64,000 bases of DNA, taken from a virus (Duplodnaviria > Heunggongvirae > Uroviricota > Caudoviricetes). Below are positions 6,809 through 60,383 of this stretch, one piece after another; position 1 is the stretch's first letter, and each line of letters begins with the position of its first letter. The DNA is taken from IMG/VR virus record IMGVR_UViG_3300038393_000245, positions 76,289 through 140,288 of that record; one strand, 5' to 3'. Under the pieces are notes generated by a model. The model was not told where the DNA came from. It was given only the letters and a program-made list of their open reading frames with translations, and did not search any database. A program made the position numbers and the translations under genes.

Positions 6809-9328
6809 TTACGACTGAGATACACTCGATCCCATTAATTCTCCTTGAGAATCAATATTGATGTTTCTCAGAATAGAAGAAAATACTTTTGTTCCTGAGA
6901 CATGAAGAACACTCTTCAACATGTCCGAATATCTAGTAACCGATACTGGAGACTGTATCTCATATGAAAAATCTTGATAATAGTCTCCATCATACAGATA
7001 TTTATTGTCACTCAAGAAACCAGCTGACGTTCTATAAAATCCACTTCCAATTCCAGAAGTAACGACAGATGATCTGGCTAATCCACTATGACTATCATCC
7101 ATAGAAGAATATGTCACTGAATCACCATCCTTAAATCCAAATCCTGAATCAACAATTTTTAGAGACAAAACGGAAGTATTAGATGACGTTACTTGTGTAG
7201 AAATTTCGGCATTCTTTCCCGCGACTCCATCAATATCATATGTGACTTCAGAAGGATATGCCGAATGTCCAGAACTAGTTCCAACCATAAGATAAGAGTT
7301 TGCACTATTTCCAACCGTCCATCTATCCTCAAATGTTAATCTCTGAATGTGAACTTCAGATGTATTAGCAAATTTGACGATTCCTTTGGCTCCATTGATG
7401 GTCTGAGTTATCTCTTCTCCGGTTGTAAATACTCCAGTTGTCGACGTATATCGAATTATAAAATCTTTCTTGTCCATTGGTGCTATAAGATCATTAATGA
7501 CTTCTATGAATGGAGCATAAGAATATCCAACTCCAGGACTCTCGTTCTTTAATCTAGCGATCTTTCCAAGAGTTTTAGTCTCAAATTGAAAAGCATCAGC
7601 CAGAGTCATATTGTTGAGATTTGAATCATTTAAAGACGCACCATATGATGCAGAATTCAACCAGTTTTCCTGTTCGAGAACGTCGATATGGTCTCGCAAG
7701 AAATTTGTATTAAGATTTACAACCTCAGAATACAATAGGTCACTATCAAAACCAGTATTAGCTCCATTTCCAAAAGTTGTACTAGATATTGTAGCGTTCC
7801 ATTGAGAGGTATTCGCCGTATCAATAATGTAATTTCCAGAATCAGTTCTGAATGATCCTTGAACCCCTCTTATCCCTATATCGTAAGACAATGACGTTAT
7901 AGATACACTCTTCCCTGTCGAATTACTTATGAGAGGCTGGTTTGTTAGAAACAATCCTTCCAGTTCATCAACTTCGATAGAGAAAATATTAGTCGAGATG
8001 TTGGTTACGGATTTAACTCTAGAATTTGCATACGACACTCCATTCTTAACTTGATATGCAAAATCTCCCGTTGAAAAGGATTGAGAGTTTCCGGTGCAAT
8101 AGACAACCACGTTGCTAGATATAGATCCAACCGAGATTCCAGTAGCAGTATTTGAACTCCATCCTGCATTTTGAACAGTGAAGCTCTCAGTGTTTGAAGA
8201 ATTGTAATACAATGGAGCCGATGGATCCATATAATTGTTTCCACTAATCGTATTCAATAAGAAATATTGAGTTGTATTAGAACCTCCCAATTCCTGACTG
8301 AGTATTCTATTAACTCCTATTGGAGCTCCATTCGCATAGTAGTTATATACCAAATCTCCAACATTGAATGTTGTAGTGTTCGCATACCACTGAACATTGG
8401 CCATTGGCTGCACTATATTAAGTATCTTACCATCTAAGGAATTATTAGACGTGTCGACTATGTGAACATTTGATAGACGTAAAACTAAGTCTGAAATGTT
8501 AACATTAGAATCTGGGCTGTATCCCCAACCTCCATCGATTAGATCAAAATTAACGATACCAGTTATCGACTGAAGTTCGGATACTAGAGCTCTTCCTTCA
8601 GATCCTGACCTCGATTCTAATTTTACTTTCTCGCCCTTTGAAAAATTAGAACCTCCATCAATAACATCAAGTGAAGTGAGTGATCCAATTATTGTTGGAT
8701 AGTCTTCGTAATCTTCTTCTCCAACCGGGTTCGTGAATCGTATTTTTTCTCCGGTCTGAAATGTTCCCTGAATTGATGAAATATACAGAACTTCTATATA
8801 GTTCCCCTTAACCTTTCTTCTGACTAATTTCTCAACGAAAGCAGTCGCTCCGGATTTAACTCCAGTTATTGGTCTTCCAACAAATAATCTGTTAATAGGA
8901 ACTGATATTACTTCTAGATACTGAGGAATCGTCCATTCGGAGCTAGAGAGCCTGAAAACATCCTTTCCTGGATAATATACTTCGGATTCAGCAGAGAATA
9001 TTAAATCAAAGAATAATTTAATAGCGTTCTCAGTTCCCTTAGCTCTATAGAGATCGGTCGCATTCTTAATTAACTGTGTAGTATTAGTAGCGGTGTTTAT
9101 TTGTATTCCCTTTAAATACTTCTCTTTAAAGTAGATAAGGAAATTATCAACGGTTGTATCGATATCATGATTCGAAATATGGTGTCGAGCCTGGTAGATT
9201 GGAGATGATGAATCGGTCTCCATCCACACATAATATTGTTTCATGAATTCGATAAAGAGAGGTCCTTCCTCTCGATATATTTGAGGAAATTGCTGCTCAA
9301 TGAAATCTGAGATCGTTGTTTCTATCAT
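6809..9328 (-). CDS. baseplate wedge initiator, gp7-like
   Basis: YRAKGTENAIKLFFDLIF resembles T4 gp7 YSTKGIEASYKFLFKVLY. Positioned between the gp6-like and gp8-like genes. Start overlaps the gp6 stop (TAATG). Confidence 0.6.
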   Translation of the reverse strand: MIETTISDFIEQQFPQIYREEGPLFIEFMKQYYVWMETDSSSPIYQARHHISNHDIDTTVDNFLIYFKEKYLKGIQINTATNTTQLIKNATDLYRAKGTENAIKLFFDLIFSAESEVYYPGKDVFRLSSSEWTIPQYLEVISVPINRLFVGRPITGVKSGATAFVEKLVRRKVKGNYIEVLYISSIQGTFQTGEKIRFTNPVGEEDYEDYPTIIGSLTSLDVIDGGSNFSKGEKVKLESRSGSEGRALVSELQSITGIVNFDLIDGGWGYSPDSNVNISDLVLRLSNVHIVDTSNNSLDGKILNIVQPMANVQWYANTTTFNVGDLVYNYYANGAPIGVNRILSQELGGSNTTQYFLLNTISGNNYMDPSAPLYYNSSNTESFTVQNAGWSSNTATGISVGSISSNVVVYCTGNSQSFSTGDFAYQVKNGVSYANSRVKSVTNISTNIFSIEVDELEGLFLTNQPLISNSTGKSVSITSLSYDIGIRGVQGSFRTDSGNYIIDTANTSQWNATISSTTFGNGANTGFDSDLLYSEVVNLNTNFLRDHIDVLEQENWLNSASYGASLNDSNLNNMTLADAFQFETKTLGKIARLKNESPGVGYSYAPFIEVINDLIAPMDKKDFIIRYTSTTGVFTTGEEITQTINGAKGIVKFANTSEVHIQRLTFEDRWTVGNSANSYLMVGTSSGHSAYPSEVTYDIDGVAGKNAEISTQVTSSNTSVLSLKIVDSGFGFKDGDSVTYSSMDDSHSGLARSSVVTSGIGSGFYRTSAGFLSDNKYLYDGDYYQDFSYEIQSPVSVTRYSDMLKSVLHVSGTKVFSSILRNINIDSQGELMGSSVSQS

Positions 9329-11136
9329 TATTCTCGAACCGTTTCTATCTGTATAGATACCTCACTAGGGTCTATTCTCAAAATATCATTCATTGCAGAA
9401 GTTACGTCTGAGCTCGATGGAGCAGCGTAAAAATTAATACTTCCTTTATCATATTTTGTTGTGACAAAATTAACGAGCTGAACTAAACCGGTGTCATAAT
9501 CAACGGTTCCAGCATTAGCAATGAAGATATATCCTCCACCATCGAGCCTCATATATCGAAGATTTCCAACACCATCATCCTCAATGATTACAGTCTGGTC
9601 CTCATACTTAAATGGAGACGTATACACAGTTCTTAATTCTTCTGGACCATGAGATAGTTCAATCTCCGGAATGTCATTTCTAAGAGGCATTCCGAAATTA
9701 ATATCTATGTTCTGTCGTATTCCAAGTGTAGGAGAGATCTTCTTGTACACGTGCACGTCCGTGTCGTTTGAAATAATGGATTCATGAGATCCATCGATCG
9801 CAGCAATGAATTTCGATCCTAATAGAGTCGCTCCAAAATCATTTAGATTCTCTGTATTGTATTCGTCTATAGCATTCATAACAAGAAGCCTAATCTCATC
9901 TGGCTTCAGAGACGTAATGTTAAGATTATACTTAACTTTCGAATCAATCCTAGCATAGACAAATGTTGGATTAACAAATACGGGTTGGATTGGGTTCGCC
10001 ATCTTTGGCTTAATGAAATTATAATATTCGTCTCTCTTAGATGTTGGAAGTATATCAACTCCATCTACAGTGAGAGCAATAAAGACTTTTCCATACTGTG
10101 GTGGAGTAGCAGAATCTCCTCCATATACCGAAATAGCATCAATCTCAGGAAACTGTGTTTTCAAGAGAGCCTCATAATCTGAAACCGTTATAGCTCTTTC
10201 TTGAGTCTGGAAGTGTCTTGGAGCATTAAACTTAATAGATGATAGTGACTCAGGTTGAGCTCCTCCGATCGCTTTTGCAATTGTGGTAACAACTACTCTT
10301 CCAGAGTTATCACTCGTTAAATCGAGATCTGGAGAGAACAAAGTTGCTCCATTAGGAATCTCACCACTAGAAATTCTATACTGAACGGTTATGATCGACC
10401 CATCTAAAGGACGTCTTCCTAATATATCATCTCCAAACACGATTTCGTACTTACTTTGTTCACACGCCTGAAGAAAGTATGATCGAGACTGATTATCTAA
10501 TCCCAATAGAGTATCCGAAAGCGAGTAACTTACAACCGATGATCCACCATTCTCAATAGAGTTAACTATAAGAGAACTGGTATCAATCATAGGGTTGGAT
10601 AATACAAATCGAATGGAATCATTGTTATAATTCATCTCAAAAGTTTCTGTCACATAGAAACCCTCAAAGATATCGATTTGATCCGTCGTAAACTTGTATG
10701 TATTTGTTGTCGGATCTAGAGTCGTGAAATATACTTTCACTTCATCCGTAGTGAAAGTATAAGTTTGAAAATTATAGGTTGCCGTGAAGCTAGTTCCCTT
10801 AGGAATCGTTAGAGTGTTATTATTATTTTGCTCTACCTGAAGCTGTACAGTGGCTTTTGCGGATCTCGCCGATCTAGGTCGATAGTTCAACTCCTTCGCG
10901 TGAGATACTACAGACGATCTGAGTTGAGCAGAGTCTAAGAATGACTCTGACGTAAGCATGTTAACATAAAAAGCGTTCAATGAAGTATTGTACGCTAGTA
11001 TATCAAGCAATACTGATATATTTGGACCGTCAAAGTCAAAATCTTTGAAGATTGGTTGAGAGCGAAGATGGGCTTTGAGATTAGTTTTGATTGTATCAAA
11101 GTCCAGCGACGCGAGATTTAGGGAATTATTGGCCAT
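9328..11136 (-). CDS. baseplate wedge subunit gp6-like (baseplate_J family)
   Basis: DFDGPNISVLLDILAYNT and LRSSVVSHAKELNYRPRSARSAKATVQLQ match T4 gp6 DFEGSRLNVLCDLLAYNT and LRSSVVQAAQDNGYLPTSKSAAQTEIML. GATAAATAG late motif lies ~20 nt upstream of the ATG. Confidence 0.8.
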   Translation of the reverse strand: MANNSLNLASLDFDTIKTNLKAHLRSQPIFKDFDFDGPNISVLLDILAYNTSLNAFYVNMLTSESFLDSAQLRSSVVSHAKELNYRPRSARSAKATVQLQVEQNNNNTLTIPKGTSFTATYNFQTYTFTTDEVKVYFTTLDPTTNTYKFTTDQIDIFEGFYVTETFEMNYNNDSIRFVLSNPMIDTSSLIVNSIENGGSSVVSYSLSDTLLGLDNQSRSYFLQACEQSKYEIVFGDDILGRRPLDGSIITVQYRISSGEIPNGATLFSPDLDLTSDNSGRVVVTTIAKAIGGAQPESLSSIKFNAPRHFQTQERAITVSDYEALLKTQFPEIDAISVYGGDSATPPQYGKVFIALTVDGVDILPTSKRDEYYNFIKPKMANPIQPVFVNPTFVYARIDSKVKYNLNITSLKPDEIRLLVMNAIDEYNTENLNDFGATLLGSKFIAAIDGSHESIISNDTDVHVYKKISPTLGIRQNIDINFGMPLRNDIPEIELSHGPEELRTVYTSPFKYEDQTVIIEDDGVGNLRYMRLDGGGYIFIANAGTVDYDTGLVQLVNFVTTKYDKGSINFYAAPSSSDVTSAMNDILRIDPSEVSIQIETVRE

Positions 11137-11182: not shown

Positions 11183-11211
11183 TTGACATTTTTCTGGCAC
11201 TATATTATAAG
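11183..11211 (+). promoter_or_regulatory. early promoter TTGACA-N17-TATAAG
   Basis: ttgacatttttctggcactatattataag. A 28-nt near-identical copy is at 11670-11698. Confidence 0.6.
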
Positions 11212-11232: not shown

Positions 11233-11661
11233 TTGGCACCTATGTTAGTCTACAGGGTTGAGAGGTATATAGATTCATCTGGTCCATATGGGATTTGCAG
11301 CATAAATGATTCTTCTCGAGAAAGGCATCCACTTCCAGATGAAGATTCCATTCTTCGAGAAAAATGGATGGCAATTCCAAGAGGTACCTACCACAATTAT
11401 TTCTTTTGTTTCATTACCAAAAACCAACTAATGAATTGGTTTGGAGCATCCGAGCAAAACGATATTATCCGGCATAATAAAGGGAAACCTCACGATGTTT
11501 GGATCGGAGTATCTACGTACTCCTGTAATGATGAGGATGTTTTAGTGGGTTCCTCTCAGTGCGTATTTTTGATGCACAAGTGCCAAAAGATTCGATTTGA
11601 GACTTTTGAGGAAGATCTTAAGCCAGTAACATTAAGTGTACAAATGCCAGCACATTTGTAA
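11233..11661 (+). CDS. hypothetical early protein (142 aa)
   Basis: First ORF downstream of the consensus early promoter at 11183-11211. Confidence 0.5.
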   Translation: MAPMLVYRVERYIDSSGPYGICSINDSSRERHPLPDEDSILREKWMAIPRGTYHNYFFCFITKNQLMNWFGASEQNDIIRHNKGKPHDVWIGVSTYSCNDEDVLVGSSQCVFLMHKCQKIRFETFEEDLKPVTLSVQMPAHL

Positions 11662-11669
11662 AAAAGCCT

Positions 11670-11698
11670 TTGACATTTTTCTAGCACTATATTATAAA
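11670..11698 (+). promoter_or_regulatory. early promoter (duplicate of 11183) with AAAAAGCC upstream
   Basis: aaaaagccTTTGACAtttttctagcactatattataaa. Confidence 0.6.
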
Positions 11699-11734
11699 GA
11701 ATATTAAATATCCCTCTATTAAGGCCCTCTTTAC

Positions 11735-11974
11735 ATGGTAGAAAAACTTAGTGTCGAAGATAGGATCATGCTTGTCCTCGAGAATATTGTTCTTCAAGGA
11801 TATGATATTTTGAATGACACTACTTTTGAGGATATGGGATTAGATTCTCTAGACAAAGTTGAAGCATGTATGGATATTGAGGATGAGTTCAATATCGATA
11901 TTCCAGACGAAGTAATGGAGTATCTTGATACTTTTGGGGAACTCGTCGAATATATTAATCGTCGCCTAAAATAA
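11735..11974 (+). CDS. acyl carrier protein (phosphopantetheine-attachment site)
   Basis: 79 aa, acidic. FEDMGLDSLDKVEACMDIEDEFNIDIPDE matches the ACP DSL Ser-attachment motif followed by helix II. Has its own promoter at 11670-11698. Confidence 0.8.
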   Translation: MVEKLSVEDRIMLVLENIVLQGYDILNDTTFEDMGLDSLDKVEACMDIEDEFNIDIPDEVMEYLDTFGELVEYINRRLK

Positions 11975-11977
11975 CGA

Positions 11978-12439
11978 ATGTCTGATATTCAATACATCGA
12001 AGGAGATCTCTTATCGTCTCGAGAACCCGTCATCGCACATGGTTGCAATGCTCAAGGAGTCATGGGTTCAGGAATCGCGAAAGCCATTCGAGACGAATAT
12101 CCCACCGTATACAAGGATTATAGGGATGTATACGAGGAGCAAGGGAATAAACTTCACTTAGGACAAGTTATAACAACGAGAACTCTCGAACGTACTATCC
12201 TGAATATCATCTCCCAGGAGTACTACGGGAGAAACCCGAACGTAGTCTACGTATCATATGATGCAATTGAGAAGGCCATTCTTCGCATCAATAAGATGGG
12301 CTACGTTCGGGTTGCCTTTCCAAAGATTGGAGCAGGACTTGCAAACGGAAACTGGGAACTCATATCCCACATTATCCAGACGACATCGGACTTTACTCCG
12401 GTCGTATATTACATTAAAGAACCGACAGAAAAATGGTAA
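11978..12439 (+). CDS. macro domain protein (ADP-ribose binding/hydrolase, TARG1/DarG-like)
   Basis: VIAHGCNAQGVMGSGIAKAI matches the Gly-rich ADP-ribose-binding loop of OARD1/TARG1-type macro domains. ~150 aa, the single-domain size. Confidence 0.75.
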   Translation: MSDIQYIEGDLLSSREPVIAHGCNAQGVMGSGIAKAIRDEYPTVYKDYRDVYEEQGNKLHLGQVITTRTLERTILNIISQEYYGRNPNVVYVSYDAIEKAILRINKMGYVRVAFPKIGAGLANGNWELISHIIQTTSDFTPVVYYIKEPTEKW

Positions 12440-12440
12440 G

Positions 12441-12707
12441 ATGGCTAAAAACATTGATCTGATCAAGATTTTTGGTGTCGAGGGAATGGTTACTCCTAAG
12501 ACGCTGGTGACTGAAACTGTTAGAGAAGTAAATCGTAAGACTCCAATGGAGGCTACAGAGGATATTAAATCTCTTTTAGATGAAATGACGGTTCGTGCCG
12601 TGTCTGGAGATTTATCCGGAGTCGAAGAGTGTCTTCACGCCATTCAACTTCGAGTTACTCTAATGAAGAATATTGCGGATGCTCTTCGAAAGGGAGAGAT
12701 TAAGTAA
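12441..12707 (+). CDS. hypothetical protein (88 aa)
   Basis: ATG at 12441 directly after the macro-gene stop. The listed 12258 start overlaps the macro gene in another frame and is unlikely. Confidence 0.5.
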   Translation: MAKNIDLIKIFGVEGMVTPKTLVTETVREVNRKTPMEATEDIKSLLDEMTVRAVSGDLSGVEECLHAIQLRVTLMKNIADALRKGEIK

Positions 12708-12709
12708 TA

Positions 12710-13150
12710 ATGTCAGACGTTAGAGGTTTCTTTGGAGATTACAGGTTCCTGTCGAACTTTTATAAGGCTCGACAAGTTGTCAACGGAATAGAATACATCT
12801 CTAATGAGCACTTCTTCCAGGCTTCTAAATCCACGAACCAACAAGATCACGATTGGGTCAATTCTTCCGAGACACCTGGTATTGCGAAGCATCGTGGGAA
12901 GAGAATTCCGAGACGAGAAGATTGGAATAAAATTCGTCTCGACATTATGAGACTTGGTTTATTGGCTAAGTTCTCTCAAAATCTCTATTTGAAGGATCTC
13001 TTACTAGGAACCGGAAGTTCTTACCTTGAAGAACTTAACGATTGGGGAGATACTTTCTGGGGGACGTGTAGCGGAAAAGGAGATAATCACTTAGGCTTGA
13101 TTCTAATGGACCTCCGAGATAAATTCAGGATTGAAGAGTTGTATGGTTGA
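12710..13150 (+). CDS. NADAR-domain protein (DUF1768/YbiA-like ADP-ribosyl hydrolase family)
   Basis: FLSNFY..NEHFFQASK..DW..I..MR..L.AKFSQN..L...LL.TG...L.E....D..WG....G.N.LG.ILM..R matches the Pfam NADAR consensus along its whole length. Confidence 0.85.
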   Translation: MSDVRGFFGDYRFLSNFYKARQVVNGIEYISNEHFFQASKSTNQQDHDWVNSSETPGIAKHRGKRIPRREDWNKIRLDIMRLGLLAKFSQNLYLKDLLLGTGSSYLEELNDWGDTFWGTCSGKGDNHLGLILMDLRDKFRIEELYG

Positions 13151-13364
13151 GATCATTAAACGAGGAGAGATCCCGGAAAACAAATGGTATCACGCCACGT
13201 GCAACAATTGTGAGACCCAATTTAAGTTTCAAAAGTCCGAAGTCACTCCTAGGAATAGACATCAAGCACAGAGTATAGAGTGTCCGTTCTGTGAGAAGAC
13301 AGTTTTTATGTCGTCTCTTAAACCGTATCCACCTAATGGAGGTCTCCATTGGTACGATCGATAA
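13143..13364 (+). CDS. small zinc-ribbon protein
   Basis: CNNCE..x21..CPFCEK two-CxxC arrangement. ATG overlaps the upstream stop (ATGGTTGA). Confidence 0.45.
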   Translation: MVEIIKRGEIPENKWYHATCNNCETQFKFQKSEVTPRNRHQAQSIECPFCEKTVFMSSLKPYPPNGGLHWYDR

Positions 13365-13497: not shown

Positions 13498-13824
13498 ATG
13501 AATCGTAAGGATTTCAAGGATAAGTGGATCGCTGCTCTCCGTTCTGCAGAATACTCCAAAACAGAGGATGTGTATTTTGATTCCGATACTAATTGCTATT
13601 GCACTCTGGGAGTAGCTTATAAACTTCTTCAGGACGATAATGAATTTGAAGATTATATGGATATTCTAAATTCAAAATTATTATTCGAAATATTTCCAGA
13701 GTTGAATGTTGGACATCCATCTAGGTTGTGGTCGGAGATCACGGACAGAAGCGACGGAGTGGGATTCGAGAAACACTCATTCGAACAGATGGCAGACTAT
13801 CTTGAGGAGAACTTAATTGTCTGA
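13498..13824 (+). CDS. hypothetical protein, tandem paralog A
   Basis: KDKWIAALRSAEYSKT..CYCTLGVAYKLL..FEQMADYLEENL aligns with the next ORF. Confidence 0.6.
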   Translation: MNRKDFKDKWIAALRSAEYSKTEDVYFDSDTNCYCTLGVAYKLLQDDNEFEDYMDILNSKLLFEIFPELNVGHPSRLWSEITDRSDGVGFEKHSFEQMADYLEENLIV

Positions 13825-14173
13825 TATCAAGACTAAATGGATCGAGGCTCTTCGTTCTGGAAGATATGCTCAGACAAAAGGTTATCTTCGAACTATCGAC
13901 CAAGAAGGAAATAGTTGCTACTGTGCCGCCGGAGTTCTGGCCGATATCATCGATCCCGGAGCATGGGAAGAAGCGTCTCCATGCTCCGATCTCAGATCGA
14001 CTACGAAGTATAGATGGAATGGACACATGTTCGGGTTGCAAAAAGAGGAATATGAACCGTTTGAAATTCCATTCTCTATTCTTGATGGAGCGATGAGAAG
14101 AAACGACGATAAATTCGAAAGCTTTTCAGACATAGCCGATTATCTCGAAGAGGCTCTAGGAGAAGTTCAGTGA
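13817..14173 (+). CDS. hypothetical protein, tandem paralog B
   Basis: KTKWIEALRSGRYAQT..CYCAAGVLADII..FSDIADYLEEAL. Same architecture as paralog A. Confidence 0.6.
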   Translation: MSDIKTKWIEALRSGRYAQTKGYLRTIDQEGNSCYCAAGVLADIIDPGAWEEASPCSDLRSTTKYRWNGHMFGLQKEEYEPFEIPFSILDGAMRRNDDKFESFSDIADYLEEALGEVQ

Positions 14174-21878: not shown

Positions 21879-21987
21879 CAGACGATTTATTGTAATCCGG
21901 CTTACAGGAGACCGCGAGAGACGCGGTCGTCACTGCTAGTATGATTCCAATGATAGCTCGCCACATAGAGAATTCCCCCTCGAGTAG

Positions 21988-22070
21988 AAGAGAAGGCCGG
22001 AATCGAACCGACGACAGGTCCTAAGAGGGGTTACAATCCCAGGACTGCTCTACCACTGAGCTACTTCTCT
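21988..22070 (-). tRNA. atypical tRNA-like gene (83 nt), candidate anticodon UGU (Thr) on an abnormally extended anticodon arm
   Basis: Reverse complement reads AGAGAAG-UA-GCUC-AGUGGUA-GAGC-A...GUCGG-UUCGAUU-CCGGC-CUUCUCU-U. Acceptor, U8A9, D-arm and T-arm are canonical. The anticodon arm is 28 nt (GUCCU-GGG-AUUGUAA-CCC-CUCUU-AGGAC) instead of 17. Consensus promoter at 22078-22108 places the transcription start at its 5' end. Confidence 0.5.
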
Positions 22071-30139: not shown

Positions 30140-31318
30140 TTGAAAACAGGTCAGCCCTTATCCCTCAAGAAAGCAAATCCGGTGATCACTCCGAATAAAC
30201 ATCTTATCGGTGTTCGAGAAGCACTTCAGAGGCAAGGATTTGATCTTTGGTTCGTTGGTGGTTGCGTTAGAGATTCTATTCGAGGCGAAGAACCAAAGGA
30301 TATCGACCTGTGCACTAGTGCGACTCCGGAAGAAGCGATTCAAGTCTATGAGAAGAATAACATTCGGTATTTTAAGACCGGAATCGATCATGGAACTCTG
30401 ACTGTTAGAGTTAATGGTCAGTCGTATGAGATCACCTCTCTCCGAACCGAATCAAATCATGACGGAAGAAGGTCGACGGTTTCGTATACTCGAGACATCA
30501 TAGAGGATCTCAGTAGAAGGGATCTAACAATCAATTCTATCGCGCAGAGATTTGATGGATACATCATCGACCCATTTGGAGGCGTCGATGATATTAAGAA
30601 TCATCGAGTCCGAATGGTTGGAAGTGCTTCTGATCGATTCAAAGAAGACTACTTACGAATCTTAAGATTCTTTAGATTCCATGCTAGGTTTGCTGGAGAG
30701 AGCCCTCTCGATCAGAGTGCTCTAGAGGCCATCGAAGAGACTAAGGAAGGTCTCAATCAAATCTCTGGAGAGAGAAAGTGGCAGGAGATTCAAAAGATAT
30801 TAGTCGGACCATCGTCCTCAGCTACTCTTATTCGAATGAAAGATGTCGGAGTCATGAAGTCTATTGGTGTGAAAGACTTCAGTGTCGATAGAATGAAGAA
30901 GTGTGATGAAAAGAAGATCAGTAGATCATCTACCGTTCTTGGAATAATTTCTTATAAGCAGATCATCGAATCCGTAATGAGCGACTGGAGAATGAGCAAC
31001 AGTGAGCGTTCTGAAGCGAGATTCGCGAATCTCTATCATGACGTAACATCAGTGGGCAAATTCAAGGATCTCTTGGTAGACGGAGCTAATATCGACTGGG
31101 TCGAAGAGCTGCTGAAACTTAATGACCTCTCCTCTCTTCGTGAGTGGGAAGTTCCGGTATTTCCAGTCAACGGTCTGGACATCATCAATAAGAAGGGAAT
31201 CAAGACAGGACCAGCGATCGGACTAATCTTAAGGAACCTTCGAGAGAGTTGGAAGAAGTCTGATTACAAACTTACTAAAAAGCAATTGCTTAACCATCAA
31301 TCAATGCCTCGGAGCTAG
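30140..31318 (+). CDS. tRNA nucleotidyltransferase (CCA-adding enzyme / poly(A) polymerase head-domain family)
   Basis: LWFVGGCVRDSIRGEEPKDIDLCT matches the class II GGxVRD...DxD head motif. The RDLTINS and RFFRF motifs are also present. Start uncertain (TTG 30140 or GTG 30182). Confidence 0.8.
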   Translation: MKTGQPLSLKKANPVITPNKHLIGVREALQRQGFDLWFVGGCVRDSIRGEEPKDIDLCTSATPEEAIQVYEKNNIRYFKTGIDHGTLTVRVNGQSYEITSLRTESNHDGRRSTVSYTRDIIEDLSRRDLTINSIAQRFDGYIIDPFGGVDDIKNHRVRMVGSASDRFKEDYLRILRFFRFHARFAGESPLDQSALEAIEETKEGLNQISGERKWQEIQKILVGPSSSATLIRMKDVGVMKSIGVKDFSVDRMKKCDEKKISRSSTVLGIISYKQIIESVMSDWRMSNSERSEARFANLYHDVTSVGKFKDLLVDGANIDWVEELLKLNDLSSLREWEVPVFPVNGLDIINKKGIKTGPAIGLILRNLRESWKKSDYKLTKKQLLNHQSMPRS

Positions 31319-31609: not shown

Positions 31610-32395
31610 ATGCGAGGAATTGGTTCTTTTATCGGAGCCGGAGTTGTAGGTCTCTTGCTCCTTACGGGAGGTCTGTCGAGCTGTTCTACGGTTGATGCCG
31701 GTGAAGTCGGACTCAAGAATGTGTATGGCCAGGTTGGAAATGAAGTCCTGGCTCCAGGTCTCCACTTCAAGAATCCAATCACTACTTCGATCGAGACGAT
31801 GTCTATCCAGTCGAAGAGGAAGGATGGGCAAACTGGAGTCTACACAAAAGACTTTCAGACGGCTACCGTAACTTCGGCGATCACATATTCTCTCGATCCA
31901 AATGCTGCTCCTCGCATGCGAAGGACGGTTGGAAATGAATGGGAGGCTCGTCTCATCTCTCCGGTAGTAGAGTCGTCTATCAAGAGTGTCTTTGGCCAGG
32001 TGAATGCCATTGCCGCGATTGAGAATCGACAGGCAATGCAGAATACGATTCAGGACATGATTCGTAAGGCTCTTAGTCCTCGTGGTATTCGAGTAGAGAG
32101 TTTCGCTCTGACTAACATCGATTATTCAGACGCTTTCGAAAAGGCCGTAGAGGATGCGCAGGTCGCGACTCAGAATGCGGTAGCCGCTAGGAATCACACG
32201 GTTCAGGTTCAGGAAGAGGCGAAACAGACCGAGATTCGTGCTCAGGCCGATGCAAAGGCCATGCAGATTAAGTCTCAGGCTCTGTCAAGCAATCCTGGAC
32301 TGACTCAGTATGAGGCGGTTCATCGTTGGAATGGTGTTCTTCCTCAGAATATCTATGGATCGGCTCCGATTCCATTTTTGAACGTTAACAAGTAA
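31610..32395 (+). CDS. SPFH/band-7 (HflC/stomatin-like) lipoprotein
   Basis: Lipobox LSSC after a signal peptide. Band-7 core with C-terminal coiled coil. Confidence 0.75.
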   Translation: MRGIGSFIGAGVVGLLLLTGGLSSCSTVDAGEVGLKNVYGQVGNEVLAPGLHFKNPITTSIETMSIQSKRKDGQTGVYTKDFQTATVTSAITYSLDPNAAPRMRRTVGNEWEARLISPVVESSIKSVFGQVNAIAAIENRQAMQNTIQDMIRKALSPRGIRVESFALTNIDYSDAFEKAVEDAQVATQNAVAARNHTVQVQEEAKQTEIRAQADAKAMQIKSQALSSNPGLTQYEAVHRWNGVLPQNIYGSAPIPFLNVNK

Positions 32396-34508: not shown

Positions 34509-35033
34509 TTAAATTGAAGAACAACGTCTTGGTTGTCTCCTCACGACAGTGGCGTACGTAGTGGTCCATGCAATGTAACCATAATCGATAGAATTTCGAA
34601 CGGATGTTCCTCCCGAAGCTGGAGTTGTTGTCACAACAACTTCAAGAGCAGAACCATCCGGAACGGTTAATAGGCTACTATTCCAAGTGAAAGTAAAATT
34701 TTGACTTGAACTTGGAGCAGCCGTTACTGATTGAGCGGAACTAGTAGCAAGAGCAGCTGCTCCTCCAGTTTCCCATATCGCTATAGTGAAGGTAGGAGTT
34801 CCAGTGTTAGTACTATTCTTTCGAGCCTGAACTGTTATTGTTTGAAGACCGGCTCCAGATGTCAGAACTGGAGTAGGAGTAGGAAATCCTACTCGGATAG
34901 TAGACGCTACGTTGCTAGTAGACGCGGTGGTCCAGTTGGTGTCTTGAGCTCCAAGATTGGTAGTTGTAGCAGTTCCAGCAGTAACATTCGAGGATGATAC
35001 GATCGTATCTGGTGTTAATATCTGATTAGCCAT
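34509..35033 (-). CDS. Thr/Ser-rich structural protein (174 aa)
   Basis: Sits between the two fibre genes. Confidence 0.45.
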   Translation of the reverse strand: MANQILTPDTIVSSSNVTAGTATTTNLGAQDTNWTTASTSNVASTIRVGFPTPTPVLTSGAGLQTITVQARKNSTNTGTPTFTIAIWETGGAAALATSSAQSVTAAPSSSQNFTFTWNSSLLTVPDGSALEVVVTTTPASGGTSVRNSIDYGYIAWTTTYATVVRRQPRRCSSI

Positions 35034-37675
35034 TATGACCTCACAACAAAGGCTATATCCTGGAGAGTTGAATCAGGAGAAGCTGGAGCCTCTATCCACG
35101 CTAGATCACCACTACTAATAGATCCTGCCGTTATACTGACGGTTGCTGTAGTTGATGCCGCTCCGAAAGTAAAGGTGCCAATGGTTGTAGGACTTGCTAT
35201 CGTTCCTTTTTTAAGAGTGAACACCGTGCTGCCAGTAGCAGCGACCAAACTTTTCGCAGCACTATTAGTCTGACTGATCGTAACGGGATACTGGAAGATA
35301 CCTAGGACGTATCTCTCATTAGCGAGTGTCGTTCCGGTAACAGTGTAGTCCTTACCGTCAACTTTATTAGCTGCAGTAATGTTACCAGATGCAGCAATAG
35401 CAGCGGCACTAACTGTTCCAGTGAAAGTTGGAGAAGAAGTTGGAGCCTTAGCATTAAGAGCGGTCTGAAGATCGGTCTGACTGCTTAAAGTTCCTGTAAT
35501 ACTTCCCCACGACGCAGGACCAGCGGTTCCTGTTATAGAACCTCCTGCTGGCTTAAGTATTCGAATATAATCACCAGCACTATCGGTTGTTATAGTGACA
35601 GTAGTTCCACTTAGAGTGTAGTTTGTAGTTGGAGCTTGTAGAACTCCGTTAACAAACACCTCAATATCATCAACAGTAAGGCCACTCTCAGGGATTGTGA
35701 CTGTTTGTGATGCTCCTGTACCAGTAGCGGTAACCGGAGACCATGCCATTCCACTATTTCCACCCGCTGAACCGGTGAAACCAGTCGGACCAGTAGATCC
35801 CTGAGATCCAGTGAATCCAGTCGGCCCAGAAGACCCAGATGAACCAGTGAAACCAGTAGGGCCCGTTGTTCCCTGCGAACCAGTGAATCCCGTAGGACCT
35901 GCAACAGTAGACGCCGATCCAGTGAACCCAGTAGGACCTGTTGTTCCCTGTGACCCAGTAAAACCGGTTGGCCCGGTCGAACCCTGAGAACCCGTAAATC
36001 CAATCGATCCTTGCGACCCAGTGAATCCGGTCGGACCAGTAGGCCCTTGTGATCCTTGCGACCCCGTGAACCCGGTCGGTCCAGCGACAGTAGAAGCAGA
36101 TCCAGTAAAACCAGTCGGACCAGTAGGCCCTTGTGATCCTTGCGATCCAGTAAAACCGGTAGGACCCGCAACAGTAGAAGCAGATCCAGTGAACCCAGTC
36201 GGACCTGTTGCACCACTAGATCCCGTAAATCCAATCGATCCTTGCGATCCGGTGAATCCAATTGGACCTTGTGATCCTTGCGACCCAGTGAAACCTGTAG
36301 AACCAGAAGTTCCAGCCGATCCCGTGAACCCAGTCGGACCTGATGAACCCTGTGAACCGGTAAAACCAATCGGACCTGATGAACCAGTTGATCCAGTAAA
36401 ACCAGTCGAACCAGTGAACCCTGTTGGTCCGGTAGAACCAGAAGATCCAGCAGAACCAGTGAACCCTACTGGCCCAGTAGACCCTTGCGATCCAGTAAAT
36501 CCTGTTGGTCCAGAAGTTCCAGCCGATCCCGTGAACCCAGTCGGACCTGATGAACCCTGTGAACCGGTAAAACCAACATTACCTTGAGCTCCGCTTGAAC
36601 CAGTAAACCCAGTAGATCCTGTTGTTCCCTGTGACCCTGTGAATCCGGTTGGTCCAGCGACGGTAGACGCCGATCCAGTAAACCCAGTAGGTCCTGTTGT
36701 TCCTTGCGAGCCAGTGAATCCAGTCGGCCCAGCAACAGTAGAAGCAGATCCAGTGAACCCAGTAGGACCAACAGGACCAGTAGAACCCTGAGAACCAGTA
36801 TATCCGATATCACCTTGAGCACCGGTCGACCCGGTGAATCCAGTTGGACCCATCGCGCCCATGGATCCAGTGTATCCTATGTCACCCTGCGATCCGGTGT
36901 ACCCCTGAGATCCGGTCGACCCAGTATATCCCTGGCTTCCAGTATATCCAATACTTCCCTGTGACCCGGTGTATCCTATATCACCTTGCGATCCAGTGTA
37001 CCCGATTGGTCCCTGAATATTTCCTACATTCTCCCAAGCACTCCCGTTCCATACATACAGATCACCATTAATGAGATATGCGTCTCCACTAGTTCCACTT
37101 GCGGGAAGTTCTGCGGTGCTAGAAAATGACCCCTTAATGTTGATTCCGTTTCCAATCGATCCAGTGTATCCAATTGAACCCGTGTAGCCAAGATCTCCCT
37201 TAGAACCAACAAACCCAGTTAGTCCTATAGTTCCCTGCGAACCAGTATATCCGATTACGCCCTGATCTCCAGTAGAACCAACATATCCAATTGGACCGAT
37301 ATCCCCTTGAGAACCGGTATAGCCGATGGGACCAATGTCTCCTTGTGATCCGGTGAATCCGACGGACCCCGAATATCCCGTTGTTCCTATTGATCCAGAA
37401 TATCCGATATCACCCTGCGATCCGGTATATCCAATCGATCCAGTATATCCTAGATCTCCCTGTGAACCAACGTATCCTGTCGATCCATCGTACCCAATCG
37501 AACCTTGTGAACCGGTGTATCCAATCGAACCAGTGAATCCAACTGACCCAGAATATCCTCTAGTGATCTGAAGAACCTCGACAGAGATAGCGTCAGGGTC
37601 TGTTATCACCGATAGAGGAGGCGATCCAATCTCTGTTACTTGTTCTATCTCGATATTATAGGCCATCTGATACAC
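35033..37675 (-). CDS. collagen-like triple-helix repeat tail-fibre protein (880 aa)
   Basis: Hundreds of G-X-Y triplets ([30 protein letters not shown]) between non-collagen N- and C-terminal domains. Confidence 0.75.
35700..37560. repeat. imperfect tandem nucleotide repeats encoding G-X-Y collagen triplets
   Basis: Recurring ggatccagtgaacccagt(c/a)ggacc-type units within the collagen-like gene. Confidence 0.7.
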
Positions 37676-46689: not shown

Positions 46690-47139
46690 ATGGCGTATAA
46701 AGGCAAATTCAGATGCCTGAACCCTCAAAAATACAGTGGTGATCATACTAATATCATCTATCGATCTAGATGGGAATTCGTGTTCATGCGATTCCTAGAT
46801 CGGACTCCTGATGTCATTGAATGGAGTAGTGAGGAATTTTTCATTCCGTATAAGTGTAAAACGGATAAGAGGTGGCATCGATATTTTCCGGATTTTAAAG
46901 TCAAATGGAAGAAAGACGGAAAGACCATCGTCCAGGTCATCGAAATAAAACCAGACGGACAAGTAAGAAGACCAGAGATTCCTAAAAAGAACACTAAATC
47001 TTCTAAACAAAGATATCTGAATGAGTGTTTCACATACGCTAAGAATATATCTAAATGGGAGTATGCTCAGGAGTGGTGTAAGGATCGTGGATATGAATTC
47101 AAGATACTCACCGAAAAAGAGCTCGGGATTCCATTCTAA
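46690..47139 (+). CDS. head completion protein gp4-like (149 aa) with PD-(D/E)xK-like motif
   Basis: Divergent from gp53 as in T4 (4 | 53). T4 gp4 is 150 aa. PDF..VIEIKPDG motif. Confidence 0.45.
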   Translation: MAYKGKFRCLNPQKYSGDHTNIIYRSRWEFVFMRFLDRTPDVIEWSSEEFFIPYKCKTDKRWHRYFPDFKVKWKKDGKTIVQVIEIKPDGQVRRPEIPKKNTKSSKQRYLNECFTYAKNISKWEYAQEWCKDRGYEFKILTEKELGIPF

Positions 47140-54349: not shown

Positions 54350-55723
54350 TCACATTCTAGCTCGATTTCTAATTTCTTCAAAAGTAGTCTCATTAACGAC
54401 GATTCCATCTAAGAATCGAACCTTCAATAGATTCTCACGACTACCAAGCTCTTCTTGTCTAATAGTCTTATATTCGTTAGATTCCTTAATGAGTGACAGA
54501 CGTCCCTTTTTGGACTTCTTTCCGGAGTCAGTGATTGGATCCTTAAACACATCGATCCATTTTCCATTCACTTTAGCCGCGCTGCACTTCATCGCGAATT
54601 TAAGTGTATCTCGATTAACCTGTTGAAGGAGAGCTCCTCCCTGTCCAAATGCTATATTGTCAGCACTATATCCAGCTAGTGTTAGAGTAAACAGGATCGA
54701 TCTAATGCTCGAATGATCGATTCCATCTCCCTGAATGATTCGAACGTTGTTAAGAACACGATATCCCTTATCGTTAACCGTACTTCCAAAATATTCATCA
54801 AGAATTTGAGCACACTTCTTGACAACCGTAGCAGGATCTCCCGAATCTGGTCGAACTACTAGAGTAGCTCCACTTTGAAGAACATCATCCTTAAGAACAG
54901 TTCCCCACATCTTGCAGGCTTCGAAGATATCATAGGAATCGGATACACAAGCTATCAGACCTCCGGGTTTACCATGGTTCTTAATCATGTTTCGATATGA
55001 ATCAACTTCATGATCGCGGCCCCAACTGGTTACGGTAGAGTGCTCCATAGCTGGAATGCTAAACCCGGGAACCGAATCAGAAGCATAATGGTTCATGATA
55101 TAGGATAGTGCTTCGACAGTATCCGTTCCCTTAAAGTTGATAAGGTGAGCGGCTCCACCAATGGCTGCCGATTCTCTCGAAGAGACTCCACGAGCTCCAA
55201 AATCATGAAGCTTAAAATCGATAAGTGATGGATCTCCAGTTTTATTCAGACAGTCTAGAATGATCTCTTTCGAATGATAGCTATTACTGGCTACCGTCGT
55301 AGGATACCAGATCGCCCTTAACAGAGCCGTCTCAAGGAACGAGGTTAGCCACCAGCACGCTGGATCAGTATTGAAGATTGCGGCCAATATATTCTTAGTA
55401 GGAAGAACAGTACCTTCATCAATTCCTAAGATACAGACTGGAAGTTTCCCTCTATGATTCTCTACTATGTAGTCCCATCCTTCTCGATAAAATGGAAGTC
55501 CATGAGAGGTGATAATATCTTGAGCCTCATTAACATCTTCGTTAGTGACTACACAGTCTCTAAGATAGTGTACAAATGGTTGAAGCCCATTGTAGACAAC
55601 TTTATCATAGAGACCACCTCTTGATTCGATATAGGACCAAACAAACTCAGTGTTCGGAGGGTACTGATTCCATTGCGAATACTTGTATGAATCGCTATTC
55701 AGAATAATATTACTTGTAGTCAT
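54350..55723 (-). CDS. nadV: nicotinamide phosphoribosyltransferase (NAMPT/NadV)
   Basis: NSDSYKYSQW..YPPNT, LHDFGARGVSS, INFKGTDTV, RPDSGDP and QGDGI blocks align along the whole length with NAMPT. Confidence 0.95.
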   Translation of the reverse strand: MTTSNIILNSDSYKYSQWNQYPPNTEFVWSYIESRGGLYDKVVYNGLQPFVHYLRDCVVTNEDVNEAQDIITSHGLPFYREGWDYIVENHRGKLPVCILGIDEGTVLPTKNILAAIFNTDPACWWLTSFLETALLRAIWYPTTVASNSYHSKEIILDCLNKTGDPSLIDFKLHDFGARGVSSRESAAIGGAAHLINFKGTDTVEALSYIMNHYASDSVPGFSIPAMEHSTVTSWGRDHEVDSYRNMIKNHGKPGGLIACVSDSYDIFEACKMWGTVLKDDVLQSGATLVVRPDSGDPATVVKKCAQILDEYFGSTVNDKGYRVLNNVRIIQGDGIDHSSIRSILFTLTLAGYSADNIAFGQGGALLQQVNRDTLKFAMKCSAAKVNGKWIDVFKDPITDSGKKSKKGRLSLIKESNEYKTIRQEELGSRENLLKVRFLDGIVVNETTFEEIRNRARM

Positions 55724-55763: not shown

Positions 55764-56810
55764 TTATCTGATCAATGGAACGAAATTAGTGATGATATCA
55801 TAGTGATCGTCAAAGAGTTCCTCTCTCTTAATACTTACGAATGGAACCCACTTGGCTTTTTCAGCATCATCTGCTCCCTTAATCTTCGGGAGCTTCCATT
55901 CTCCTCCTTGAAGAGAAATATGAGCAGCGAATGTAATTGATCTTCCGAGTTGCGATCTATTTTTAGCAGAGAAGTGTCTCTCACTCTTAATCGATCCTCT
56001 CAGAACTTTATCCGGGACGTCGATTCCTGTCTCCTCCTTCAACTCTCGAATAATTCCATCTAGAGGAGTATCATCATTTACGGCATCGAAATATCCTCCT
56101 GGGAGAGCCCATAGACCCTTTCCAGGATGAGACCTACGCTTAATCAATAGAATGTGACCACTCTGAGTGACTACAGCGTCGCACGTTACATTGACCACCG
56201 GATAGGGAAGAGACTTGTACTTTTCTCTATATGAATCAACGATTCTCTTCTCTTCTAGAATGTTTTGAAATTCTTCGGTTGATCTAAATCGTATCAAGAA
56301 AGAGATGACCGACTGAGGCATCACTCCAACAAGGAAATTAGAGTTGAACTTATCGGAAAAGTACATCTCTCGAATTTGAGTCGCATCTAAGATGTTGACA
56401 AAGTCGGCAGGAACTTCTTCCCATTGAGGAAACATTTCGAGATATCTTTTAGTCTCCAAGTCCTTCTTGTGCCCAATGATTCCAATCCTATCACCGTTAT
56501 TGGTATACCATGATACTGTCTCCTGAATTCGAGCGACCCATGCGTCATCATCATACAGAGTATCGTCGTTGTATTCGAATACATACTCGGCTGAAGTGAA
56601 GTCAGAGAGACGCTGTACTTCTTCGGAGAGCATATCAATACGCTCTTGGTATGTCCACGGGTTCTTGAATGTTCTGGGAGCTTTAGCAGATCCGATAATG
56701 ATGATGACTTGATCGGCTAGTTTTCCAGCTCGCTCTAATAGCTCGAAATGAGCGTTGTGTGGAGCCTGGAATCGTCCAATGAGGACAAGTGTATTATAAG
56801 GTTTTTTCAT
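55764..56810 (-). CDS. bifunctional NMN adenylyltransferase / Nudix ADP-ribose pyrophosphatase (NadM-Nudix, NatV-like)
   Basis: N-terminal GRFQAPHNAH ((H/T)xGH nucleotidyltransferase) and C-terminal Nudix box GGYFD..DDTPLDGIIRELKEETGI. ATAAATA late motif at 56861-56867. Confidence 0.85.
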   Translation of the reverse strand: MKKPYNTLVLIGRFQAPHNAHFELLERAGKLADQVIIIIGSAKAPRTFKNPWTYQERIDMLSEEVQRLSDFTSAEYVFEYNDDTLYDDDAWVARIQETVSWYTNNGDRIGIIGHKKDLETKRYLEMFPQWEEVPADFVNILDATQIREMYFSDKFNSNFLVGVMPQSVISFLIRFRSTEEFQNILEEKRIVDSYREKYKSLPYPVVNVTCDAVVTQSGHILLIKRRSHPGKGLWALPGGYFDAVNDDTPLDGIIRELKEETGIDVPDKVLRGSIKSERHFSAKNRSQLGRSITFAAHISLQGGEWKLPKIKGADDAEKAKWVPFVSIKREELFDDHYDIITNFVPLIR

Positions 56811-58868: not shown

Positions 58869-58952
58869 TGGAGCCCCTGACAGGATTCGAACCTGCATAC
58901 GTCCATTACGCTGTTAAAGACCGGGTAGAAGCCGGTGGCGATACAGGGGCTC
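58869..58952 (-). tRNA. atypical tRNA-like gene (~82 nt) with encoded CCA, candidate anticodon UCU (Arg)
   Basis: Reverse complement has canonical T-arm GCAGG-UUCGAAU-CCUGU, acceptor GCCCCUG/CAGGGGC, discriminator U and CCA. A 5-bp/7-nt hairpin ACCGG-CUUCUAC-CCGGU sits where the D-arm should be. No canonical D-arm can be drawn. Confidence 0.45.
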
Positions 58953-59698: not shown

Positions 59699-60068
59699 TT
59701 ATATGCCTATTTGAATGAGCGCCGAGATTGGGTGATAAGGCTCTCGGCCGGCCTCAGGAGTTCTTAGGCAGCTAGTGCCATCTCCGGAAGATTATCATTT
59801 GCAGATATTCTATTTAGCGCTTACGGCGCCAGTCGATCCTCTGAGTGTATCATTCACTGGTGTCGATCCTATTTCGCCCCCATCAGAAATACTGGATCCA
59901 AAGATGTCAACCTTTGTACGATTGATTAGCCAACACTCGTTAACAAATGTTTCCGCTACCGGTCGCTACTCCGGTCATGTGTGACAACCCAGTATTTCTG
60001 GTGGAGGCGGCGGAGTACTGCCCTCCGCGTCCATCCAGCTATCTTTTCACCTTAAGCAAGGATGAGAT

Positions 60069-60098
60069 ACTTATACTATACTATCCATCAAATGTCAA
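60069..60098 (-). promoter_or_regulatory. early promoter TTGACA-N17-TATAAG
   Basis: Reverse complement ccTTGACAtttgatggatagtatagTATAAG. Followed by a ~370-nt ORF-less region. Confidence 0.55.
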
Positions 60099-60383
60099 GG
60101 AATTTTTATCGGATTCTTCTTTAATTACTTTCTTAATCGCTTGAGTGATCAAGTAATTCGGAGTTACTCTGTCCATGCTGGATTTAATGAGCAGAAAATC
60201 ACAAAGATCTGGATCTAACTCAAAATCCAAGTCTACGTATCCCTCTGCTCCAAAATTTTCATCGGAGAATTCTTTAGCTCGATCATACAGTTCTAATAAA
60301 TCTTCCGGAACGGATTCTTTAATCTTAGACAAGAATTCTTGAATAGGGTTCACTTCTTCATCTCCTCTACATTCCAGCACCAA
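60081..60383 (-). CDS. hypothetical acidic protein (100 aa)
   Basis: ORF track. Confidence 0.5.
   Translation of the reverse strand: MVLECRGDEEVNPIQEFLSKIKESVPEDLLELYDRAKEFSDENFGAEGYVDLDFELDPDLCDFLLIKSSMDRVTPNYLITQAIKKVIKEESDKNSLTFDG

Follow-up and report, generated by a model that had tools for sequence, protein, structure and literature searches.

A 64,000-nucleotide stretch of a T4-superfamily myovirus genome (positions 76,289 to 140,288 of IMG/VR record IMGVR_UViG_3300038393_000245; hereafter, the window) was analysed for the block at 11670-13364 on its plus strand. There, a sigma-70-like promoter is followed by five abutting genes for an acyl carrier protein (ACP), a macro protein, a conserved 88-residue protein (orf88), a NADAR protein and a Zn-ribbon protein. 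Based on homology and context, the block was postulated to be an early counter-defence operon, with a probability of about 0.6. The macro and NADAR proteins would be two base-specific ADP-ribosylglycohydrolases that remove ADP-ribose (ADPr) from nucleic-acid bases. The original prediction, made from the nucleotide sequence of the window, had proposed these two genes as a candidate anti-DarT module, and this remained the best-supported reading through the homology of the macro protein to T4 Tk.4 (AdfM), the precedent of the phage NADAR proteins named AdfN and the retained ADPr-contacting residues of the NADAR protein.

The macro gene (11978..12439, plus strand) encodes a single-domain protein of 153 aa. 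It matched PF01661 (E = 4.5e-10; 39.9 bits, cut-off 22) over profile positions 2-116 of 118, which identifies it as a member of the macro superfamily, and phrog_335 (E = 3.3e-42). The loop CNAQGVMGSGIAKAI, quoted in the original prediction as being of the TARG1/DarG type, was found in this protein. When a profile of the family was run against all PDB sequences, the best matches were BT1257 (7.7e-24), SCO6735 (1.1e-18) and the DarG of M. tuberculosis (5e-18), followed by Thermus DarG (1.7e-17), Poa1p (3e-15) and TARG1 (1e-13); viral macro domains (nsP3 at about 1e-6) and those of the MacroD type scored 1e-6 or worse. An AlphaFold2 (AF2) model of the protein (pLDDT, the model's own confidence score, 90.7) was compared with the PDB by Foldseek, giving 242 macro matches at E<=1e-3. 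The best of these was Thermus DarG (5m3e, 2e-11), and DarG, BT1257, Poa1p, SCO6735 and TARG1 again preceded the MacroD-type and viral proteins. The best named models were likewise those of DarG (NCBIfam, 4.1e-13; PADLOC, 1.2e-17, macro part only), with an O-acetyl-ADP-ribose deacetylase model far behind at 8e-4. Since the PDB profile search, Foldseek, NCBIfam and PADLOC agree, the assignment to the TARG1/DarG type was right at the level of the class, namely the ALC1-like class of TARG1, DarG, SCO6735 and Poa1p.

The assignment did not hold for the catalytic lysine. In the profile alignment, Gln80 falls on the catalytic Lys of DarG (Thermus K80, in 'PTK') and on K84 of TARG1, and the TARG1 Lys84/Asp125 dyad (numbering of PMC9411070) is replaced by Q80 and A122. 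A DarG-type catalytic site was therefore rejected. Across 19 macro homologues, H21-G22-C23-N24, Q80 and G118-x-G120-L121 were invariant, and H21, N24 and Q80 correspond to H24, N27 and Q85 of SCO6735 in the 'MIGQH' alignment. The protein thus matches the Gln-type subclass of SCO6735 and BT1257, its two best PDB profile matches, in which Gln likewise replaces the catalytic Lys and the His and Asn of H-x-C-N are present. SCO6735 itself lacks both TARG1 catalytic residues and depends on Q85 for thymidine-ADPr hydrolysis; it efficiently cleaves the thymidine-ADPr made by DarT and shields cells from DarT (PMC9411070). It differs from the window protein in being bacterial and DNA-damage-induced and in its long mobile loop, and identity is only 26-28%.

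Among phage proteins, T4 Tk.4 aligned over its full length (BLASTP, residues 4-149 against 2-152, 30% identity, E = 5e-19), and the macro family hidden Markov model (HMM) scored it at 4.2e-25. A transposon screen and a clean knockout linked loss of T4 tk.4 to DarTG2 sensitivity, and the gene was named adfM (bioRxiv 10.1101/2025.11.20.689424); gp104 of PhiKZ is an independent AdfM that strips DarT2 marks in vitro (PMC13309987). The window protein resembles both in being a stand-alone phage macro protein of ~150 aa in phrog_335. It shares with Tk.4 the AHGCN motif and a Gln at the DarG Lys position (..TQ / ..SQ), whereas PhiKZ AdfM keeps the DarG-type 'PTK' lysine that the other two lack. The T4 gene lies alone in the tk-vs region, whereas the window gene shares an operon with those for NADAR, ACP and orf88. 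Homologues of the window macro protein were found in 2,473 phage records, mainly of T4-like and other large myoviruses.

The NADAR gene (12710..13150, plus strand) encodes a YbiA-type protein of 146 aa that matched PF08719 (E = 2.5e-24; 86.8 bits, cut-off 35.1) and phrog_1017 (E = 1.3e-40), which makes it a member of the NADAR superfamily. Positions 9-163 of the 163-position PF08719 profile were covered, so the domain is full length, as had been predicted; the HMM searches thereby placed the open reading frames (ORFs) in all three expected families, Macro (PF01661), NADAR (PF08719) and PP-binding (PF00550). The closest solved relative was E. coli YbiA (2b3w, 1.5e-19), followed by the Phytophthora NADAR protein PnNADAR (8bau, 4e-6). 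Residues E33, K40, K60, K64, W72, R76, E108, D114 and W117 align with PnNADAR E43, K50, K75, R79, W89, R93, E125, D130 and W133. With residue roles taken from PMC11543638, this alignment indicates that all ADPr-contacting residues are retained.

The position of PnNADAR E125 separates the subfamilies, being Asp in DarG1, His in T4-type phage NADAR proteins and Glu in the YbiA type (PMC11543638). The window protein carries E108 there, and its domain starts at residue 8-10 without an N-terminal extension, both as in the YbiA subfamily. Membership of the T4 gp30.3 family was rejected (PF08010, E = 0.08, 13.2 bits against a cut-off of 36); a weak BLASTP match to gp30.3 aligned 34 residues (E = 8e-4). 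An assignment to DarG1 of the BC4488 type also failed, as the protein has Glu rather than Asp and no N-terminal extension, and no DarT gene lies nearby. All tested NADAR families remove guanine-ADPr from DNA and RNA and none removes thymidine-ADPr (PMC11125620, PMC11833690, PMC12945103), and the YbiA type additionally hydrolyses cytidine-ADPr (PMC11125620, PMC12945103). The AdfN proteins of T4, Bas32 and Bas60, three divergent NADAR proteins, rescue phages from DarTG1 (PMC11825919). Like them, the window protein is an orphan NADAR of a T4-superfamily phage with catalytic and ADPr-binding residues intact, and its E33 and K40 correspond to E36 and K43 of T4 AdfN. It differs from the latter in standing outside the gp30.3 (PF08010) lineage, with Glu in place of the His of T4-type proteins. 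Similar NADAR proteins occur in 473 phage records, including those of T5-like Markadamsvirinae at about 41% identity. The NADAR gene was not within the 12 kb of phage IrisVonRoten (bas32) that were checked, so that the placement of Bas32 AdfN among these T5-like proteins was not confirmed.

The arrangement of the genes is consistent with joint expression. The gaps between the ACP, macro, orf88 and NADAR genes are 3, 1 and 2 nt, and the Zn-ribbon gene overlaps the NADAR gene as ATGGTTGA, its start lying over the NADAR stop. A sigma-70-like promoter of early type (11670..11698, plus strand) was read directly as TTGACA-17 nt-TATAAA, matching 11 of 12 consensus positions, and the first base of TTGACA is position 11670; the promoter scan had missed the site solely because it demands T at the last -10 position. 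The predicted placement of the ACP, macro and NADAR genes under one promoter thus agreed with the ORFs, domains and promoter that were found. An exact 28-nt repeat, TTGACATTTTTCT(G/A)GCACTATATTATAA, occurs on the plus strand at 11183-11210 and 11670-11697, with 0 copies expected in shuffles, and its copies precede two consecutive transcription units. Similar TTGACATTTT-CC-GG... motifs lie 5' of the ACP block in the related loci L023, L025, L029 and L034, making the repeat a candidate clade-specific early promoter consensus; promoter function and early transcription are predicted from these motifs. In the terminator scan no terminator-like site was found 3' of 13364, and transcription probably continues into the genes beyond.

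The following sequence of events may be envisaged. Soon after infection, host RNA polymerase would transcribe the block from the promoter at 11670, and the tightly abutting ORFs would be translated together. By analogy with its homologues, the macro protein, as an AdfM/Tk.4-type member of the Gln-containing SCO6735/BT1257 branch, would bind ADP-ribosyl-thymidine made by DarT2 on single-stranded phage DNA and hydrolyse the base-ribose bond. The YbiA-type NADAR protein would in the same way hydrolyse ADP-ribosyl-guanine, and possibly ADP-ribosyl-cytosine, on DNA or RNA; such substrates would be the products of DarT1 and of pierisin/ScARP-like transferases. Between them, the two enzymes would keep phage DNA replicable in hosts with abortive-infection systems of the DarTG type. 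The enzymatic activity, the choice of substrates and the defence systems countered are all extrapolated here from homologous proteins.

Several observations weigh against this reading. In the macro protein, K34 of SCO6735, which matters for its activity on DNA, is Ser31. For the NADAR protein, E. coli YbiA hydrolyses guanine-ADPr in vitro yet leaves cells unprotected from DarT1 (PMC11125620), one group views YbiA-like NADAR proteins as riboflavin housekeeping enzymes (PMC11825919), and the window protein marginally passes the NCBIfam model for riboflavin-intermediate N-glycosidases (TIGR02464, 74.2 bits against a cut-off of 73.7). Two further points, which concern gene order within the clade and gene neighbourhoods outside it, bear on alternative explanations and were examined through the relatives of the locus.

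Single-sequence scans of IMG/VR with the macro protein and with gp6 returned no relatives; these were recovered by a profile scan and from a protein database and then traced to their contigs. The window macro protein itself was recorded from a 173.6-kb JGI contig. The 12 distinct related metagenomic loci obtained span macro identities from 84% to about 50%, with orf88 down to E = 3e-5 against its profile. The macro-orf88 pair is kept in all 12, orf88 often overlapping the macro stop codon and always lying between or beside the macro and NADAR genes. NADAR follows 3' in every locus except L128, and ACP lies 5' in 10 of the 11 loci that could be judged, being absent from L124. By comparison, 9 of the 11 small genes downstream of the block in the window are missing from most relatives. 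The block thus stays constant within an early region whose genes otherwise turn over quickly.

Every locus with the block, however, comes from a single clade and has the same gp6-gp7 baseplate genes next to it. Descent alone therefore explains part of the conservation, and synteny within a single phage clade can reflect common descent alone. The ACP, macro, orf88 and NADAR genes might accordingly be independent early accessory genes whose order was inherited in the clade and has no functional meaning, in which case the NADAR protein might act on riboflavin intermediates as a YbiA-like N-glycosidase, as its narrow pass of TIGR02464 would allow. Such an explanation gains from the loss of ACP in L124 and of NADAR in L128 while the remaining genes are retained, from the distance between the two hydrolase genes in T4, and from the fact that nine of 10 other ACP-bearing phage lineages have neither macro nor NADAR within 4 kb of the ACP gene. 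It is nevertheless considered quite unlikely, as it sits poorly with four ordered genes joined by 1-3 nt spacers or overlaps amid downstream genes that mostly come and go, and with an invariant macro-orf88 pair. Adjacency and fusion of macro and NADAR also recur in unrelated phages (PMC9503650), and outside the clade the two genes were found adjacent in L012, L017, L041, L100 and L108.

The nearest macro homologues outside the clade, at 53% identity, occur in L026, L027 and L030. In L026 (1-5465) and L027, the macro gene stands at the end of an RNA-repair cassette in the order Hen1 - Pnkp (kinase-phosphatase-ligase) - RlaP - RlaP, on a 201-kb contig. In L030 (1-5462), it stands beside genes for NAD synthase, an isochorismatase-type nicotinamidase, NAPRTase and NMNAT-Nudix. 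These contexts fit roles in RNA repair or on soluble ADPr derivatives, and they keep alive the explanation that the hydrolases act on ADP-ribose-1''-phosphate or ADPr>p from RNA repair, on O-acyl-ADP-ribose or on ADPr-derived immune signals, with the block belonging to an NAD+/ADPr metabolic toolkit of the phage. Poa1p, an ADP-ribose-1''-phosphate phosphatase, is among the closest solved relatives of the macro protein, and the window itself encodes NAMPT and NMNAT-Nudix proteins. Against this, all phage homologues that have been tested counter DNA ADP-ribosylation (T4 Tk.4/AdfM, PhiKZ AdfM and the AdfN proteins of T4, Bas32 and Bas60); the clade of the window has no gene for an RNA ligase, KptA/Tpt1 or Pnkp close to the block; and the NAD salvage genes lie on the opposite strand at a distance of ~42 kb. 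Soluble substrates were on balance judged rather unlikely.

It was also considered whether the macro and NADAR proteins might reverse or tune transferases of the phage itself, of the Alt/ModA/ModB kind, or de-ADP-ribosylate RNA, rather than counter a host toxin. Several T4-like phages express NADAR genes early together with ADP-ribosyltransferases (PMC9503650), T4 gene 30.3 lies ~3 kb from alt, and NADAR proteins remove guanine- and cytidine-ADPr from RNA as well (PMC11833690, PMC12945103). A scan of window proteins, which did not extend to the many small ORFs or to the remaining 110 kb of the genome, revealed no ADP-ribosyltransferase domain. T4 needs adfN and adfM only when DarTG is present (PMC11825919; bioRxiv 10.1101/2025.11.20.689424). 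A role of this kind is thus held to be very unlikely, and removal of toxin-made ADPr from phage nucleic acid stays the preferred reading.

Compared with the DarG antitoxins (the macro protein of DarTG2 and the NADAR protein of DarTG1), the locus holds both hydrolase folds and likely the same chemistries. No DarT match was found in Pfam or PADLOC among the genes neighbouring the macro gene, and the macro protein covers only positions 1-150 of the 338 in the NCBIfam DarG model (49 bits, cut-off 250). As the toxin gene, the DarT-binding C-terminal domain and the macro catalytic Lys are all missing, the locus is not a DarG/DarTG system; the NADAR protein likewise lacks both the N-terminal DNA-binding extension and the Asp signature of DarG1. 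The two are orphan antitoxin-like enzymes rather than a toxin-antitoxin pair. AdfB of phage ICP1 was rejected as a homologue, since it is a DarT binder and not a macro enzyme.

The original prediction had regarded the presence of both reversal chemistries in one phage as telling. Both do appear to be encoded here, but there is precedent. T4 carries AdfM and AdfN activities at separate loci, and a survey of DNA viruses had already described macro and NADAR domains as co-occurring non-randomly, adjacent and sometimes fused, often in early regions of T4-like phages (Iyer, Burroughs, Anantharaman and Aravind 2022, PMC9503650). An anti-DarT module as such is therefore not new. That survey mentions acyl carrier proteins 0 times in its text and describes no partner like orf88. 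What is new here is that the genes form a single operon, that the NADAR protein in this role is of the YbiA type, that orf88 is an obligate partner and that an ACP recurs. If the reading is correct, counter-defence by AdfM and AdfN is not confined to Tevenvirinae but also occurs in a remote, uncultured lineage of the T4 superfamily, and two reversal chemistries can be packaged in one early operon. The locus would not overturn current understanding; it provides a natural setting in which to ask whether YbiA-type NADAR proteins, which to some authors are housekeeping enzymes, serve in phage anti-defence. Its practical leads are orf88, never parted from the macro gene, and the recurring ACP.

The orf88 gene (12441..12707, plus strand) encodes a conserved protein of 88 aa and always lies directly 3' of the macro gene. 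No family matches were found in Pfam, PHROGs, NCBIfam or PADLOC, and a full HMM search of 1.84 billion representatives returned 24 matching clusters, all of its own small family. Its AF2 model is a helical hairpin (pLDDT 81.5), for which the PDB gave only generic ribosomal uL29-like hairpins at E>0.3. No similarity of orf88 to the DarT-binding domain of DarG was detectable, and the DarG models did not match it. It is most likely a macro-associated accessory subunit, and given its constant coupling to the macro gene, a physical partnership between the two proteins is the simplest guess.

The original prediction had completed the operon with a zinc-ribbon protein and two small ORFs. The Zn-ribbon protein is present (13143..13364, plus strand; 73 aa), with a CxxC...CPxC pattern, matches to TIGR02098 (6.3e-5) and phrog_2834 (1.7e-8), and weak Zn-ribbon and Lar-like matches; of the small ORFs, a single one, orf88, lies within 11670-13364. 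Roughly half of the related loci carry the Zn-ribbon gene (L023, L033, L035, L125, L126 and L127). Together with ACP, it is an optional passenger or accessory of the module.

The ACP-like gene (11735..11974, plus strand) encodes 79 aa with an isoelectric point (pI) of 4.05 and a net charge of about -16. It matched PF00550 (E = 1.9e-10; 41.2 bits, cut-off 20.8), which makes it a PP-binding protein, and phrog_5934 (E = 2.2e-16). Its score of 58.7 bits against the AcpP equivalog model TIGR00517 lies below the cut-off of 70.45, as for a divergent AcpP-like sequence. The intact DSL serine that had been predicted is present within GLDSLD, and 24 of 25 module-linked ACP homologues retain this attachment Ser. 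In the ACP of L125 (1075-1317), Pro stands in for the phosphopantetheine-attachment Ser (DIDPLD against GLDSLD), which may reflect decay or an assembly error, or may indicate that the carrier function is not needed. Neither a phosphopantetheinyl transferase nor an acyl-ACP enzyme turned up in the scan of window proteins, which did not extend to the small ORFs or to the remainder of the genome.

Orphan ACPs occur in several large phages, and the neighbourhoods of those in 10 other lineages were compared (ICP1, RP13, eugene, fHe-Yen9-03, MED4-213, LIMEstone1, Lu11, HRDY3, Bajun and BCSR5). Within 4 kb of the ACP gene, a macro gene was present in one of the 10, Ralstonia phage RP13, and NADAR in none, so a general linkage of ACP to macro or NADAR was rejected. 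In RP13 the macro gene lies 650 bp 3' of the ACP gene, and genes for a HIRAN protein and a NadR-like AAA_28 kinase are close by. The full order there (L002, 3305-6231) is HIRAN, an 80-aa ORF, ACP, a 130-aa ORF with a weak sub-threshold TPR match, a 69-aa ORF, macro, a 76-aa ORF and the AAA_28 (NadR-kinase-like) gene. As RP13 is the sole ACP-macro neighbourhood found outside the clade of the window, the link is lineage-restricted and suggestive at most. ACP had been called unexplained by the original prediction and, after this comparison, was still without an assigned role.

It was regarded as quite unlikely that ACP and orf88 are functional components of the module rather than neighbours. Two versions of the idea may be put forward. 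The block may be a three- or four-component anti-ADP-ribosyltransferase device, in which orf88 would be a macro-bound subunit and the highly acidic, Ser-conserved ACP would act as decoy substrate, DNA mimic or toxin-binding adaptor. Alternatively, the ACP may itself be a reversibly ADP-ribosylated carrier, in an arrangement that we take to be analogous to the SirTM/GcvH-L/macro operons. Either would provide a first function for the orphan ACPs of phages, which are widespread and lack an explanation.

When the locus was compared by megablast with 50,697 phage records, nothing matched, which leaves the phage without a close cultured relative; it falls in a distant, uncultured part of the T4 superfamily. 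The nearest upstream gene on the minus strand (9328-11136), divergent from the small plus-strand genes, encodes the gp6 baseplate wedge protein, which is 39% identical to gp6 of Caulobacter phage Cr30 and of Sinorhizobium phages phiM12 and phiN3. The window also encodes gp5, gp53, gp25-like, gp32, gp59 and gp2-like proteins. A permuted two-piece transfer-messenger RNA (tmRNA) of alphaproteobacterial type was found at 59727-60102 on the minus strand (Rfam alpha_tmRNA, 80.4 bits; tmRNA_permuted, 89.1 bits; both above the gathering score), although ARAGORN did not call it. The type of the tmRNA, consistent with the similarity of gp6 to that of Caulobacter and Sinorhizobium phages, hints at the host, which is probably an alphaproteobacterium.

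On the minus strand, ~42 kb from the macro-NADAR block, lie the genes of an NAD+ salvage pair, NAMPT (54350-55723; PF04095, 1.3e-59, and NAMPT_N) and a bifunctional NMNAT-Nudix protein (55764-56810; PF01467 and PF00293). Salvage of this kind lets phages restore NAD+ under NAD-depleting defences, and its presence in the same genome suggests that the phage invests in NAD/ADPr conflicts. Elsewhere in the window, the plus strand encodes a nucleotidyltransferase of the CCA-adding/poly(A) polymerase family (30140-31318), an SPFH/Band-7 protein (31610-32395), another gene for which lies near the module in L128, and a TnsA-like endonuclease (46690-47139). The minus strand encodes an 880-aa collagen-repeat fibre protein (35033-37675) and a tRNA-Tyr (GTA) called by both ARAGORN and Rfam (21987-22070), with a weak tRNA-like match of 32.1 bits at 58872-58950 in Rfam only.

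Immediately upstream of the block, under the other copy of the promoter repeat, is a gene for a T4 Y00F-like protein (11233..11661, plus strand; phrog_1106, 2.7e-22; PF26820 in the precomputed annotation). It is kept in L023, L025, L029 and L034 and absent from L033, L035 and L124, and is probably not part of the module. Directly 3' of the operon are two tandem acidic paralogues of pI 4.4-4.5 (13498-13824 and 13817-14173, plus strand; DUF8296/phrog_18067), of which 1 to 3 copies occur in the relatives L023, L125, L126 and L035.

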